Part shown: positions 9,586-23,837 of the stretch, one piece after another
Position numbering within the stretch: position 1 is the stretch's first letter
Layout: every line of letters starts with the position of its first letter
Assembly: GCA_000004695.1 (NCBI GenBank)
Contig: CM000151.3
Span: 2,016,001-2,080,000 of the forward strand
Direction: 5' to 3'
DNA: 64,000 bases
Origin: Dictyostelium discoideum
Taxonomy: Eukaryota
Notes under the pieces: generated by a model
Database searches by the model: none
Seen by the model: the letters and a program-made list of their open reading frames with translations, nothing else
What the model was told of the DNA's origin: nothing
Position numbers and translations under genes: made by a program

Positions 9586-11977
<2,392 letters not shown>

Positions 11978-12795: not shown

Positions 12796-16812
<4,017 letters not shown>

Positions 16813-17227
16813 CTTGATATACCTATCTCTATCTCTTCTACCTCCTTTATTTTTTTTTTTTTTTTTTAAAAAGATTTATATTGGATGACCTTTTTTTTTT
16901 TTTTTTTTTTTTTTTTATCAATAGTTCCTTTATTATTTATTATTTATTATTTATTACTTTTATTATTTGTTTTAATTTATTATTTATTATTTTTTTTATT
17001 TGTTATTATTTATTATTTATTATTTTTATTTTTTGATTAGCAATTATATATATTTATTTATTAATTAATATCTGATATTATAATAATTAAATCTCCAAGA
17101 TTTTTTTTTTTTTTTTTTTTTCAAATTTTTTTTTTTTTTTTTCCTAAAAAATAATATACAATACCACAACAACAGGTATTAAATAAATAAATAAATATTT
17201 GTACACAATTAAATTAAACCTAGTTTG

Positions 17228-17258
<31 letters not shown>

Positions 17259-17293
17259 TTGATGGGTTATTTTAAAATTTTTTTTTTTTTAAA

Positions 17294-17326
<33 letters not shown>

Positions 17327-17509
17327 AATTTTAATTTTTTTTCCTTTAATTTTTATTATAAATTATTTTCATATGAAAAACTTTTTTTGGTTTTGTTTTG
17401 GATTTGATTTGATTTAATTGTTGGTTTTATATATATAAAACTATAATTTTAAAACCTAAGTGGTTTAATAATTTTTTTAATTTTAAAGTTTAAAAATATA
17501 AAATGCCCG

Positions 17510-17568
<59 letters not shown>

Positions 17569-18014
17569 TAAATTACTAATTTTTATATTAGTAATAAAAT
17601 AAGAGTGGTGTAGACAATACAAATTTTTAAAAATAACCACATATTATCATTTTTTTATTTTTTATTATTATTTTATTATTTTATTTTAATTTTTTTTTTT
17701 ATTATTTTTTATTTTTTATTTGAGAAGAATTGAGAGTAATGATGATATTGGCACACACACACACACACACCTTGTACCCCAATTCACAAGCAATTGAATA
17801 ATTGATATAAAATTATTTTTTATTTTATTTTTTTTTATTTTATAAAAAAATAATAATAATAATAATAATAATAACATATTAAAAAAAAAAAGAAAAAAAA
17901 AAAAAAAAGAAAAATAAAAAAAAAAAAAAAAATTAATTAATAATTTTTGTATCCATTGTGAAAATATTATTTAATTTCTACTTTTTCTTTTTTTTTTTAA
18001 ATTTATTGTTTTTC

Positions 18015-18139
18015 TTATTGTGAATCAAAAACTCTATCAAGTTTTCTATTAATATCATCGGTTGTCTCAAATGGAACAAAATTCTTTTCTAAATGAATTT
18101 TTTCTAATCTGCACCTAATAATTTTAATTTTAAAATGAT

Positions 18140-18214
<75 letters not shown>

Positions 18215-18472
18215 AATAAATAATTTTATTTTTTATTTTTTTTTTTTTGATTTTAATTTATTTTTACTTACAATTCTTTAAATTGATCATAAGATCTCCC
18301 AATTATATTTTTAGCTTCGGTTTTTAATTTCAATTTTAATTCTTGGTCTGGTATATCAAATTTCAATTTATTTAAATCATTAAAAGTTTTTAAGAAATTC
18401 TAAAATAAATAAATAAATAAATTAATAAATATGTGTGTTTTTGTTTGTGTTTGTGTTTGTGTTTGTGTTTGT

Positions 18473-18531
<59 letters not shown>

Positions 18532-20271
18532 ATATATTCTTACAGTATGTTTTTTAATTATTGATTTAACTTCATCTTTTTCTTTATTTGATTTATTAGT
18601 TATTAAAATATCAGCTATAGTTTTCCAAAATGAATTTAAAACTTTAATTTCATTATCTAAACAAGTTTCAAATTCATGTAGTATATGATTTGCACTCGCC
18701 AATTCATTATTTTCAAATTGTTGATTCGATAAGATTTTAGATTGTTTTAAAGAGGTTGAAATATAATGATAATTATTAATTTGAAAAATTACAGATTTAA
18801 TTGGTGGTTTAAAGAAATCAGTTGCAGGTTGAGTTGGAAAATCTTTTTTCGCTCTACCTTGTAAATATTTAATTAAATTTTTTAATATCTTTTCTAAGAA
18901 ACCAATAAATGATGTAGGTAATATTGTTGAAGATGCAGAATTTGATGATGATGATGATGATGATGAAGATGAAGATTTACTATTTGAAGAGGTTGATGAT
19001 GGTGCATTACTATTGCTGTTACTATTATTATTATCTTGACCTTTTAATAATAATTCAACAGAATGTTTATATTCAATTAAACGTTTAAAATAATTGATCA
19101 TATTTGAAGAGATTTCATCAACAGTTGCATCAGAGATGATTTCTTTTCTATTTGAACTTGAAATTTCTTTTTCTTCATCCAATGAGAAATCTAATAGAGA
19201 GGCACAAGTATCTTGTAAATGTTTAATTTGAGTTTTTAATTCACTAATATGTTTACCATCTCTTGAACTGATTGCAGTGATAAAGTCTGGTAATAGTTTA
19301 GTAAAAGTATCGAATAGATCTAGTAATGGGAAAATACTGAAGATTTTATCACCAGGCGTTTTTCTTACTTTAATGATTGGTTCAGTGGTTTCCAAGAGTA
19401 GTTCATGGGCAGGGTCAATGATTTCGTCGAGAATCAATTGATATTGGTTGCCAAATAATTCACTTGCCAAATCGTACTCTATCTGATAGAGACGCAATGT
19501 TTCTTGAACGTAGGAAATCAGTGGATGGGATCCCTTGACGTAGGCGAGGTTCTTGGTTTCACTGGTTTGTTTTATGAATTTCTCAGGCGCCATTTTACGG
19601 AGTGACAAAAGGATGAATTTCGATCGCTTATCTTTATACTCTTTTAAGAATGCATTGTAATGTAGTTTTTCAAATAGTTCAATATATTTGGAGATCTCTT
19701 CGACGTGGTTGGGTAGGATGATTGCTAGATAACGCTTGGAGTTGGGTAACTTCGCTATGGTGGTTGGGTCGACCAAATTGCTGATTTTGAGAAGCAATGA
19801 CTTGAAGCTGGTTTCAAGCTCGTTCAAGCCGGTGGCTTTCAATTGTTTCAAAGCGTCCATCACCTTGTCTGACGACTTGAAGTGCGATTTCTCGGCAATG
19901 TAGTCGATGGCATTGCCGACATGCTCCAATGCCAGCATGTACGACACGTAGTCTCCCTTGGCGCCGTCGTTGATTTTGGAGTCGATCTTATCGACGTCGA
20001 ATTTGTCCAGTACCGATTTCACCTGCTCCATGGTGGAATTAATATTATTGAAAATGCTCGACCACTCATTCATCGATGCATTGATGGGAGCCACATCCAT
20101 CTCCAATTGGGACAAGCCTTCATTGAATCGATCCAATATATAAATCATTTGCTTTGACATTGAATTGTTTTTCTCTAATTGCTCTTTTATGAATTGTAAA
20201 TCACGTTTATCATTCTCCAATTGGTCGTCCTGTTCGGTCAATTCCGAGGTCGCATTGTTTTTCCACGACAT
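18015..20271 (-). CDS. exoc7: Exocyst complex component Exo70 (exoc7); exons 18544..20271 (ATG at 20271; the frame stays open further upstream to 20400), 18272..18399 and 18015..18114, about 651 aa from this ATG
   Basis: The body aligns to Exo70 (NDKRDLQFIKEQLEKNNSMSKQMIYILDRFNEGLSQLEMDVAPI, compare human EEETLSFIRDSLEKSDQLTKNMVSILSSFESRLMKLE). The track ORF ending RIYFF* actually ends at a ACT|gtaaga donor (exon end 18544). Two further exons, NFLKTFNDLNKLKFDIPDQELKLKLKTEAKNIIGRSYDQFKEL and CRLEKIHLEKNFVPFETTDDINRKLDRVFDSQ*, reproduce the Exo70 C-terminus (human ...VEQVGDMIDRLFDTSA*). The introns are 18400..18543, holding poly-T and (GTTTGT)n, and 18115..18271, holding (GAT)n. The upstream boundary is ambiguous, as described under findings. 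Confidence 0.8.
18136..18213. repeat. (GAT)n microsatellite of about 26 units inside the last intron of exoc7
   Basis: A perfect trinucleotide run. It is flanked by the GAATT|gtaagt donor at 18272 and the attattag acceptor at 18115. Confidence 0.95.
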
Positions 20272-20407
20272 TACCACCAAATTACTGCTTTTCAAAGCAC
20301 CTGTAGATTGAACTGTTGTCACAGAGTATTCAGAGTTTAATAGATTTCTAATATGCTCAAACTCCTCATCATCAGCTTCTGTTGGTGTCGCATAAAATAG
20401 CTAATCA

Positions 20408-20935
20408 TCAACATATTCTTTGATAACTTGGTATATTGGACCCCCATCTTGTAGACGATGCACTAGATGGTTTACGTGAATGACCTTTACTAAATACACT
20501 TGCACCTGGTTGTGGTACAACTGGTGATAATGGATTCTTATTTAGCATCATCATTGACATCATTGTATTTAAATTTTGTGCTGATGCTTGTTTACCTAAA
20601 TATGAAAATGGTGATGTTGTTGATGTTGCTGTTGGTGTATTTGATGATGGTGATGTTGATTTATTTGTATGTTGTTGTTGTTGTTGTTGTAATAATGATA
20701 AATTTGCTGAATTTCTTTTTGGTAATGTTGGTGATGTTGATTTTGTTGATGGTATAGTTGGTAATGATGAAATTCCAACAGATGATTTTAATCCTCCACC
20801 ACCACCACTACTACCACTATTTGGTGGCATACCTAATGATGTCTTTAATCCAGTTGGTGATGTAGGTGAAGGTGCATTTGATTTCTTTTGATCTAATACT
20901 GATAATCTTGCACTTAATCTTGGTGGTGCACTCAT
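20408..20935 (-). CDS. Ser/Thr/Pro-rich ORF of 175 aa with a genuine ATG; it directly abuts exoc7 in a different frame, so it may be the 5' part of exoc7 disrupted by a frameshift, or a separate small gene
   Basis: There is a real ATG at 20935 in tttaaATGAGT context with a very AT-rich upstream region. The encoded sequence MSAPPRLSARLSVLDQKKSNAPSPTSPTGLKTS...SRKPSSASSTRWGSNIPSYQRIC has typical Dictyostelium low-complexity composition. Its TGA at 20408 lies only 5 nt upstream of a TAG at 20401-20403 that closes the exoc7 frame, and no intron-sized splice solution exists between the two frames. Confidence 0.4.
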   Translation of the reverse strand: MSAPPRLSARLSVLDQKKSNAPSPTSPTGLKTSLGMPPNSGSSGGGGGLKSSVGISSLPTIPSTKSTSPTLPKRNSANLSLLQQQQQQHTNKSTSPSSNTPTATSTTSPFSYLGKQASAQNLNTMMSMMMLNKNPLSPVVPQPGASVFSKGHSRKPSSASSTRWGSNIPSYQRIC

Positions 20936-21249
20936 TTAAAAAAACAATATAAAAATATAATTATATTATATATTATATAATTATATTATATGTTTTTTTT
21001 TTTTTTTTTTTAATATTACAAGTTTTATTGTTGAAAATTAAAAAAGAGAAATAAAATTATATTATATGTTTTTTTTTTTTTGAATTTTTTTTTTTTGTTG
21101 ATTTTTTTTTTTTTTTTTTTTTTTTAATTTAATTAAATTTTTTTTTTTTACAGAATAAAAAACCATTTTTCGTTGTTTATTTCATTTTTTTTTTATTTTT
21201 TTTATTTGTTCTTCATCCAATAGATGAGTTGAAAAAAAAAAAAAGGAAA

Positions 21250-23714
21250 ATGGCTAATGAAATAATTACACCTACTGAAGGTGAATTAAAAAGTAAGTAT
21301 CCCCTTTTTATTTTTTTTCATTTTATTTTTATAGTATTTTAAATTAAATTATTAATTTTTATTATAACATAAAAAAAAAAAAAAAAAAAGCTATCATTGA
21401 TAAAACAGCAGCATATGCAGCAAAATTAGGTGAGAGTTTTGAAAATAAAGTTAAACAAAGAGAAGGACACAATGCAAAATTTAATTTTATGAAAGAAGGA
21501 GATCAATATTATCCTTATTATAGAAATAAAATTGTAGAGAATAAAGCAAAAATTCAAGCAGATGCAGCAGCAGCTGCCGCAGCTGCAAATCCAAAAACTC
21601 CTTCTACTACCACCACCACAACAACAACCACAACAGCAACAACACCACTACCAACAGCAACAGCAACAACAACATCACCAACTCCAACAACATCATCAAC
21701 TATAGTACCAGTACCTCAAACAAATTCAACTCAACAACTACAACAACAACAACAACAACAACAACAAACAACACCAGTATTTGAAAAACCACAACCTCCA
21801 CCCCCACCACCACCAAAAAAAGAACCAACACAACCTGATCCACTTTTATATATTTTAGATGTACCTGATTTTATGACCCCATTAGAATTGTAAGTTGTAA
21901 AATTAATTAATTTTATTGTATCTATCATATTAATTTATTAATTTTTTTTTTTTTAATAATTATTACTCTCTAGAGATACAATTAGATTAACAGCACAATT
22001 TATTGCAAAAAATGGTGATAGTTTTTTTATGGAATTAGCAAGTAGAGAAGTAAAGAATAGTCAATTTGATTTTTTAAAACCAACCAATCATTTGTATGAA
22101 TGGTTTAGAGCATTGGTAGAATCCTATGCTCAAATTATATATCCACCACAAGGTATAAAGGAGCAATTAAAGTCAAACTATTTCTCCAATAAACAAACCA
22201 TTCTAGAGAGAGCAATGAATCGTTGTGAATATAATCAACTCAAAGAGATTGAGGAACAAAAGAAAGAGGAGCGTGAGGATGAGGAGAAAACAATCATTGC
22301 CTCAATTGATTGGCATGATTTTGTAATTGTAGATACCATTGAATTCAATGAGGATGATTTAGACGACTTACCACAACCAAGAACATTTGACCAACTGATT
22401 GCTGGTGATACACCATTTGGTGGCAGTGATTTCGATAATGATGGTCATGGTTCAAATGGTAAAGGTGGTCAAGATATGGAGATGGAGATGGATATGGAGA
22501 TGGAGATGGATGATGAAGATAATAATAATAATGAGGATGAGATTGAAGAATCATCATTATCGTCAACAAATACAACAGGTAATTTACCACCAAAAGATCA
22601 ATCAAAATTAAAAATTGTTAAAGATTATCAAAAATCAAATTCATCTGTTAAATCTAATGCACCAACAAAATTAACTCAGTTATGTCAATTTTGTAAACAA
22701 GAGATACCATTGGACGAAATGCAAGAACATATGAGAATTGAATTAATTCAAAAACAACAAAGAGATTCGAGATTGGGTGGTGGTGGTAGTAGTAATAATA
22801 ATAATAATTTAACAAATACTTTAACTCAAGATGACGATATCGCAAGAAATCTTCAATCATTTGCAAGTAAAAGAGTTGATATCTTTGGTGAAACAGAATC
22901 TTCTAAGAAACAAGATGAACAACCAACTCAAGCACCAAAAGTTATTTGGGATGGTCATTCTGGTAGTATTCCAAGAGTACAAGCTGCTCAACAAGCTGCT
23001 CAATTAGCTGCTCAACAAGCTGCTCAACAAAAAGCTGCTGCTATTGCTGCTCAACAAGCATCTCAGCAACAAGCATCTCAACAACAACAACAACAATTAC
23101 AACCACCACAACCAATTGGTATTCACCATCATCCACAACGTCATTTACCACCAGGTATGATGCCTCCTGGAATGATGCCACCTGGAATGATGCCACCAGG
23201 TATGATGCCACCTGGAATGGTACCACCACCACCATTTGGTATGATTCCACCTGGAATGGTACCACCACCACCACCAGGTTTAATGATACCAACTGCACCT
23301 CCAGGATTAATGATACCACCAACACAACAACAACAATTACCTCCCCAAACAAATACATCCCCATCCTCATCCTCTTCAATTAAAGTTGAAGAACCTCAAT
23401 CTAAAAAGTTAAAGATTGATGATGTATTAATTCCTGAATCAGTTTGGTTACAAAATAATCCAAACCCTGTCAATTTAACAGTAGAAATGGCTGATAAAAG
23501 TAATATTTATCAAATTACACTTCAACCAACCGATAGTATATCTTTATTAAAAGAGAAAATTAAAGAACTTAATGGTATGCCAACTAATAAACAAAAATTA
23601 CAAGCTCCTGGTTTATCAATTTTAAAAGATACTTGTAGTATAGCTTTTTATAATTTAAAATCATTAGCAATAGTTACTTGTGGTCAAAAAAAAAAAGGCG
23701 GTAAAAAGAAATAG
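21250..23714 (+). CDS. sf3a1: Splicing factor 3A subunit 1 (SF3a120/Prp21-like) with two SURP domains and a C-terminal ubiquitin-like domain; exons 21250..21292, 21391..21889 and 21974..23714, about 760 aa
   Basis: Exon 1 is MANEIITPTEGELK with a A|gtaagt donor. Exon 2 begins after aaaaaag with SURP1 (IIDKTAAYAAKLGESFENKVKQREGHNAKFNFMKEGDQYYPYYRNKI) and ends GAATT|gtaagt. Exon 3 begins after ctctag with SURP2 (IRLTAQFIAKNGDSFFMELASREVKNSQFDFLKPTNHLYEWFRALVESY). It carries a PPGMMPPGMM proline-rich region and the ubiquitin-like fold (IYQITLQPTDSISLLKEKIKELNGMPTNKQKLQAPGLSILKD) before the stop at 23714. The introns are 98 and 84 bp. Confidence 0.8.
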
Positions 23715-23837
23715 TTAATAGATTAATTAATAAATAAAATAAAATAAAATAAAAAAAAAAAAAAAAAAAGGATAGAAAATAATTAAGTAAAAAAAAAAAA
23801 AAAAAAAAATATTAAAAAACAATATTTAAAAATAGAT

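Follow-up and report, generated by a model that had tools for sequence, protein, structure and literature searches.

The exoc7 locus and its interrupted reading frame

The window analysed here, a stretch of 64,000 nucleotides of the Dictyostelium discoideum genome, carries the gene exoc7 on its minus strand. The 5' end of this gene is occupied by an open reading frame (ORF1) that starts at an ATG at 20935, just downstream of very AT-rich DNA, and ends at a TGA at 20410-20408, with a second TGA immediately after. It encodes 175 amino acids, rich in Ser, Thr, and Pro. The exoc7 frame itself is closed by a TAG at 20403-20401, 4 nt beyond the end of ORF1 on the minus strand. Past this stop, the frame remains open for 43 codons (20400-20272, LFYATPTEADDEEFEHIRNLLNSEYSVTTVQSTGALKSSNLVV), up to its first ATG, at 20271. 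The GC content of the junction (20200-20499) is 0.365-0.39, against 0.09-0.125 in the true intergenic DNA at 20900-21199, and the junction is therefore coding-like. These observations agree with a previous sequence-only reading of the locus, which had given the same coordinates for ORF1, the TAG, and the ATG at 20271, and which had described the stretch preceding this ATG as GC-normal, open, and unlike intergenic DNA.

The features of the locus are given below, where P0003 is the public protein model of strain AX4, L004 is a near-identical D. discoideum locus, and L001/L005, L002, and L003 are loci of further relatives.

20498..20935, minus strand: first part of exoc7 exon 1, with the start codon at 20935 and the S/T/P-rich N-terminal extension; identical to residues 1-146 of P0003
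20778, minus strand: single T, giving Val53 in place of Gly; L004 and all three outgroups have G
20401..20497, minus strand: annotated 97-nt AX4 'intron', coding for VFSKGHSRKPSSASSTRWGSNIPSYQDYVDEE; holds the probable error patch
20419..20421, minus strand: AAA run with one extra A (aligned at 20421), producing a +1 frameshift; TATCAAAGA in the window versus TATC-AAGA in L004, L001/L005, L002, and L003
20416, minus strand: A where the relatives have C or T in the locus alignment; GAA replaces the Asp codon GAC/GAT
20408..20410, minus strand: TGA ending ORF1, an out-of-frame stop reached only through the extra A; with the four edits described below, the frame reads past it
20403..20404, minus strand: TT, versus AG in L004 and L001/L005 (GG in D. 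citrinum); GAA GAG (Glu Glu) becomes GAT TAG, with the in-frame stop at 20403-20401
18544..20400, minus strand: rest of exoc7 exon 1, with the conserved acidic motif, Exo70_N, and most of Exo70_C
18400..18543, minus strand: genuine intron of 144 nt, GC 0.12, GTAAGA..TTTTAG, needed to reproduce P0003
18272..18399, minus strand: exoc7 exon 2; its splicing reproduces P0003
18115..18271, minus strand: genuine intron of 157 nt, GC 0.18, with a (CAT)n run; assigned from the sequence and from splicing to P0003
18015..18114, minus strand: exoc7 exon 3, with the stop codon TAA at 18017-18015; assigned in the same way

Both Exo70 domains are recognized in P0003 and in P0012, the protein encoded by L004: Exo70_C (PF03081) scores 133.8 and 133.6 bits, respectively (cut-off 24.1), and Exo70_N (PF20669) 32.4-32.5 bits (cut-off 23.9). 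When ORF1 alone was compared with Pfam, no family was matched.

Exo70 in other dictyostelids

A homologue search recovered 11 other dictyostelid Exo70 proteins (P0001, P0002, and P0004-P0012). They come from two further D. discoideum assemblies, two D. citrinum assemblies, two EukProt entries, and five species, namely Polysphondylium violaceum, Tieghemostelium lacteum, Acytostelium subglobosum, Heterostelium album, and Cavenderia fasciculata. In 11 out of 11, the equivalent of ORF1 and the Exo70 domains form a single polypeptide with no break at the junction, and ORF1 is thus to be regarded as an N-terminal extension of Exo70, rather than as a separate gene. The part encoded by 20498..20935 is collinear and homologous with the N-termini of these same proteins. 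All 11 share the sequence ...GHSRK..S..RWGSNxPSYQDYVDEELFYxTPTEEDDEEFExIRNLLNSEYSVTT..., and the motif hit by the lesions, SYQDYVDEELFY, is almost invariant among dictyostelid Exo70 proteins. The residues that would be deleted or unlinked if the lesion were real are those of the extension that vary least among Dictyostelia, and the AX4 model is the only recovered dictyostelid Exo70 to lack VFSKGHSRKPSSASSTRWGSNIPSYQDYVDEE. A comparison with other dictyostelids had been proposed together with the sequence-only reading; it helps to resolve the case, the break being absent from the relatives.

These data bear directly on the view that two genes are stacked here, one for a 175-aa Ser/Pro-rich protein and the other for an Exo70 starting at the ATG at 20271. 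ORF1 does have its own ATG, AT-rich upstream DNA, and its own stop, and an ATG is indeed present at 20271. Nevertheless, ORF1 aligns collinearly with the N-terminal region of Exo70, as one ORF, in every relative, it has no Pfam match of its own, and the AT-rich spacer expected between neighbouring genes is missing, given the GC contents reported above. In addition, a database look-up of the exact products (the 175 aa of ORF1, 599 aa from a GTG start, and 582 aa from the ATG at 20271) found none of them on record, which also speaks against this arrangement. Two stacked genes are, thus, highly improbable.

Programmed recoding, in which ribosomal frameshifting and stop-codon readthrough would yield full-length Exo70 from the sequence as written, could draw on the overlap of the two frames by a few nucleotides and on the open, conserved DNA past the stop. 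However, it would need two events within 20 nt, a frameshift and the readthrough of the TAG. Moreover, the shift and the stop are absent from every relative, including the one that is 99.45% identical, and there is therefore no conserved recoding signal. The probability of this explanation is close to negligible. As far as the compared sequences can tell, the comparison with relatives contradicts both stacked genes and programmed recoding.

The AX4 gene model and its 97-nt 'intron'

The window, once 20497..20401, 18543..18400, and 18271..18115 are removed, translates exactly to P0003, the 840-aa D. discoideum AX4 'exocyst complex subunit 7' (EAL71133.1, XP_644917.1, Q558Z9). The window is, thus, the AX4 reference sequence, and its public model already bridges the two frames through a GT-AG 'intron' at 20497..20401, a point that the sequence-only reading had missed. 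As these 97 nt are treated as an intron, the model is devoid of VFSKGHSRKPSSASSTRWGSNIPSYQDYVDEE, and their removal costs 32 conserved residues.

The GT..AG boundaries of 20497..20401 restore the reading frame, but 81 other pairs (40-500 nt) do so too, and frame restoration by this particular pair therefore carries no weight. All 82 pairs that join the frames without a stop in this size range have a GC content of 0.33-0.40 (0.36 for 20497..20401), versus 0.12 and 0.18 for the bona fide introns of the gene, so that none is intron-like in composition. The earlier statement that no plausible GT-AG intron joins the two frames is, thus, right as regards composition and wrong as regards size. The donor of 20497..20401, GTATTT, is weak, the two real introns of the gene starting with GTAAG. 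The homologous 96 nt in L004, L005, L002, and L003 consist of 32 open codons, and third codon positions account for 13 of their 15 variable sites, which shows that the segment is constrained as coding sequence. In summary, 20497..20401 is not AT-rich, it is under coding constraint, and it is not an intron in the relatives. A search of the published literature for comments on the exoc7 model found none.

A near-identical locus and the lesions at the nucleotide level

The locus L004 (GCA_054883475.1, JBTAPE01) shares 99.45% identity with the window along 22.9 kb and encodes an intact Exo70, P0012 (KAM9951979.1, hypothetical protein ACTFIT_002666, 872 aa). It has neither the extra A nor the TAG, and requires no 5' intron; its structure is taken to be the true structure of exoc7. 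The independent sequence of the stretch that the sequence-only reading had called for is, thus, available in this assembly, and its intact gene, together with the dictyostelid comparison, resolves the case. Within exoc7, the window and L004 differ only at 20778, in a patch of four changes, and in an intronic poly-A run of unequal length. Apart from V53G and the 19-nt patch, the coding sequence of exoc7 matches that of the intact L004 gene exactly. A pseudogene was, therefore, rejected, no relaxed constraint or further lesions being found along the gene.

The patch was delineated by aligning the loci of four relatives to the window. The window reads TATCAAAGAATATGTTGATGATTAGCTA across it, versus TATC-AAGACTATGTTGATGAAGAGCTA in two D. 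discoideum assemblies and TATC-AAGATTATGTGGATGAGGAACTA in D. citrinum, and the intact sequence at this position is CAAGACTATGTTGATGAAGAGCTA. The patch thus amounts to four changes in a span of 19 nt, namely one A too many in 20419-20421, C>A at 20416, and AG>TT at 20404-20403. The frameshift results from the extra A, and the TAG from the TT. At both positions of 20404-20403, L004 is identical to the outgroup L005. The TAG is itself a second lesion, overlooked in the sequence-only reading, and the relatives have GAG or GAA in its place. That reading had also missed the position of the indel, which the alignment places in the AAA run (20419-20421); the G5 run (20441-20445) was considered as the site of the frameshift and discarded on this ground.

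With the four edits, the window encodes 872 aa, identical to P0012 except for V53G. The real exoc7 product is, thus, most likely a continuous protein of 872 aa, reading ...PGASVFSKGHSRKPSSASSTRWGSNIPSYQDYVDEELFYATPTEADDEEF..., and the T at 20778 (Val53) is probably a further isolated reference error. The 872-aa sequence contains the peptide WGSNIPSYQDYVDEELFYATPTEADDEEFEHIR.

Holland et al. 2025 (PMC12745789; PRJNA1300491) assembled AX2-214 and genetically distinct wild isolates using Nanopore and Illumina data, and the accession series and locus tags of GCA_054883475.1 fit this project. The reported diversity of D. discoideum has a mean of 0.003 and a median of 0.0014 (bioRxiv 10.1101/2025.10.22.684067), which predicts roughly 14-30 private substitutions in 19.9 kb. 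Only 1 was found in L004, which argues against a wild strain; from this near-absence of private changes, L004 is probably the NC4-derived strain AX2-214.

A probable error signature across the neighbouring DNA

The differences between the window and L004 were polarized using L005, a more distant 'D. discoideum' assembly, as the outgroup, over 19,901 ungapped sites. Of the 28 substitutions that could be polarized, the window carries the derived state at 27 and L004 at 1 (binomial p=2.2e-7). L004 is also identical to the outgroup at all cleanly aligned non-homopolymer indels (20421, 12933, 11890, 17466, 16872, and 15534). The one exception, at 17424, sits in a scrambled patch (17420-17530) that differs among all three sequences. 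Wherever the D. citrinum loci can be aligned, they bear out this polarization. Natural lineages would be expected to accumulate about equal numbers of derived changes, and errors in L004 would not be able to restore the outgroup state systematically, so that this one-sidedness is the pattern expected of errors in the window.

Furthermore, the window-specific substitutions are strongly clustered: 22 out of 28 have another one within 40 nt, whereas 2.5 would be expected at random and no more than 10 were obtained in any of 2000 trials. In the great majority (26 out of 28), the new base is the same as a neighbouring one, for which the background is 0.605 (binomial tail estimated at ~1e-4). This one-sided, clustered, neighbour-copying pattern is that of sequence errors, not of evolution. 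Other patches of differences occupy 23691-23728 and, following a long poly-T, 17420-17530. Within the same 23 kb, at least one other reference frameshift is probable, at 12933, and the neighbouring sf3a1-like gene has an altered C-terminus.

The density of window-specific differences, 1.4e-3 per site, cannot be accounted for by laboratory mutation, as the mutation rate of D. discoideum is 2.9e-11 per site per generation (PMC3466296). The same study reported 1916 candidate differences from the reference shared by at least two of three AX4-derived lines, attributed to reference errors, differences between clones, or mutations during the growth needed to found the lines (PMC3466296). It relied on mapping 31-nt reads with at most one mismatch (PMC3466296), and could, therefore, not detect a patch of four changes.

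Mutagenesis is another conceivable origin of the changes. The nitrosoguanidine treatment in the history of AX3 is a possible source of clustered real mutations. Yet, among the first 15 window-specific changes, our own tally counted no more than 3 G:C>A:T transitions, and this source was set aside.

A real lesion or a reference error

The rival to be weighed most carefully is a real lesion private to the AX3/AX4 lineage, arising through a single complex mutational event in exon 1. AX3/AX4 and AX2 are separate derivatives of NC4, and a complex mutation private to AX3/AX4 is for this reason conceivable. Cells would then obtain Exo70 either through removal of the 97 nt as a new intron, with an in-frame loss of 32 aa, or through initiation at the ATG at 20271, without the extension. 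Several observations are in line with such an event: the window does differ from an intact, near-identical assembly; a frame-restoring GT at 20497 and AG at 20401 exist; the TT change makes the acceptor context T-richer (ATTAG versus AGAG); and an Exo70 starting at 20271 would keep both Exo70_N and Exo70_C.

Nevertheless, the patch has the same signature as ~24 other window-specific differences nearby, in coding and non-coding DNA alike, namely that of window-derived, clustered, and neighbour-copying changes, and the measured mutation rate (PMC3466296) rules out that all of these are real mutations. The composition and donor of the 'intron' (GC 0.36 and GTATTT, versus 0.12-0.18 and GTAAG in real introns) also weigh against this rival, as does the loss or unlinking of the most conserved part of the extension. 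In addition, the exocyst has been reported to be probably essential in Dictyostelium, attempts to knock out sec15 having failed (PMC3315810), which also counts against this rival. A private lesion is, thus, considered unlikely. It is slightly harder still to accept that AX4 and AX3 truly carry the lesion while the exocyst is kept through 97-nt splicing or an extension-less Exo70. If true, the case with splicing would be a laboratory-timescale conversion of a coding segment into an intron, rescuing both a frameshift and a nonsense mutation.

The best explanation, to which a probability of roughly 85% can be given, is that the exoc7 break is an error patch in the AX4 chromosome 2 reference, bridged in the annotation by a false intron. 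Under this explanation, there would be a single exoc7 gene, whose first exon starts at the ATG at 20935, and ORF1 would be its lineage-specific, low-complexity N-terminal extension. Sanger-era base-calling or consensus errors in 19 nt would have created the +1 frameshift and the TAG. Gene modellers would then have reopened the frame by declaring 20497..20401 an intron, giving the 840-aa public model without 32 conserved residues. The true gene would comprise three exons (20935-18544, less one extra A; 18399-18272; and 18114-18015) and encode 872 aa. Genuine AX4 DNA would, judging from the compared sequences, be free of the lesions: it would read ...AGTTATCAAGACTATGTTGATGAAGAGCTATTT..., versus ...AGTTATCAAAGAATATGTTGATGATTAGCTATTT... 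if the lesion were real. Four miscalls in 19 nt of otherwise clean coding sequence are, however, unusually bad for a finished reference, which counts against the error explanation. Among the three options offered by the sequence-only reading, an assembly indel in an N-terminally extended exoc7 is, thus, the one that survives, a closely stacked small gene and an unusual recoding event having been discarded.

The biological interest of this finding is small, and its practical value, which lies in correcting a gene model of a model organism and in pointing to further errors of this kind in the vicinity, is modest. In the D. discoideum Exo70 of UniProt, RefSeq, and dictyBase, a dictyostelid-specific N-terminal region is probably short of 32 residues, which belong to its best-conserved portion. 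Any construct, knock-in, alignment, or peptide search built on the public Exo70 model would inherit this gap. An outgroup-polarized comparison of the AX4 reference with the new long-read assemblies would probably uncover numerous other short introns that are false, along with incorrect protein tails.

Comparison with known systems

The Exo70 proteins of the other Dictyostelia (P0002 and P0004-P0011) share the same order of parts, that is, a low-complexity S/T/P-rich N-terminus, the conserved motif RWGSNxPSYQDYVDEELFYxTPTEEDDEEFExIRNLLNSEYSVTT, Exo70_N, and Exo70_C. Their low-complexity part varies in length and sequence, and none of them has a frame break. The AX4 model (Q558Z9) describes the same locus and the same DNA as the window, but calls intron 97 nt of conserved coding sequence, whose product is present in every other dictyostelid Exo70.

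Annotated 'introns' that bridge frameshift errors are a general artefact of draft and early finished eukaryotic genomes. The exoc7 'intron' has the common features of this artefact: it is a short GT-AG segment with a length that is not a multiple of 3 and an exon-like composition, it overlies a frameshift, and it deletes conserved residues. Unlike the usual case, the exoc7 patch also carries a stop codon created by substitution, besides the indel.

Further differences between the reference and related assemblies

Besides exoc7, two genes carry differences in their coding sequence, and a third has one in an intron:

Window position 12933: in a minus-strand gene that occupies 14083-18102 and encodes 1129 aa in L004, the corresponding locus of the closely related D. 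discoideum assembly GCA_054883475.1.
22029-23714, plus strand: sf3a1-like ORF, with its 3' end affected by a patch at 23691-23728.
11890: additional G, close to the beginning of a PX/Vps5-domain gene and inside an intron (GTAAGTTAATTAATTG...).

In the alignment, a run at position 12933 is one A shorter in the window than in L004 and in the outgroup L005, a more distant assembly locus also labeled D. discoideum. Because of this missing base, the C-terminal tail of the encoded protein reads ...HL* in the window, versus ...SLTHK* in L004. The missing A probably represents a second frameshift error of the reference, giving rise to a wrong protein tail. Within exoc7 itself, position 20778 is a lone T in the window, compared with a G in L004 and all three outgroups, which places Val53 instead of Gly in a low-complexity region of the product. 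The T is probably a further single-base error of the reference.

Within the 38 nt of the 23691-23728 patch, five differences are specific to the window. Two of them lengthen an A run, so that the tail of the sf3a1-like product reads GQKKKGGKKK in the window versus GQKERGGKKK in L004 and the outgroups, and the remaining three are A/T changes immediately 3' of the stop codon.

Non-coding differences are also found. A very long poly-T tract is immediately followed by the intergenic stretch 17420-17530, which contains about 25 differences specific to the window in 110 nt; L004 is identical to the outgroup at nearly all of these sites. The stretch looks like a poor-quality read segment that was retained in the reference. 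The additional G at 11890, relative to L004 and L005, is intronic and, therefore, has no coding effect.

Composition and introns of exoc7

Exon 1 of exoc7 comprises a GC-rich island (19400-20100), where the GC content reaches 0.42-0.505 against a window mean of 0.23, with codons atypical of D. discoideum (e.g., GGC GCC AAG GAC TAC GTG TCG). Both introns harbor microsatellites: a (CAT)n run with about 25 units in the intron 18115-18271 (approximately 18140-18215), and (CAAACA)n in the intron 18400-18543 (approximately 18440-18475). In the first of these introns, the window and L004 have poly-A runs that differ in length by 10 nt.

A conserved motif upstream of Exo70_N

20272-20470: conserved motif, approximately residues 155-215 of the repaired exoc7 protein.

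This motif, RWGSNxPSYQDYVDEELFYxTPTEEDDEEFExIRNLLNSEYSVTT, is located N-terminal to the Exo70_N domain, and is kept in all the dictyostelid Exo70 proteins examined. Its acidic core, DDEEFEHI, may resemble an Atg8-interacting (LIR/AIM) motif.
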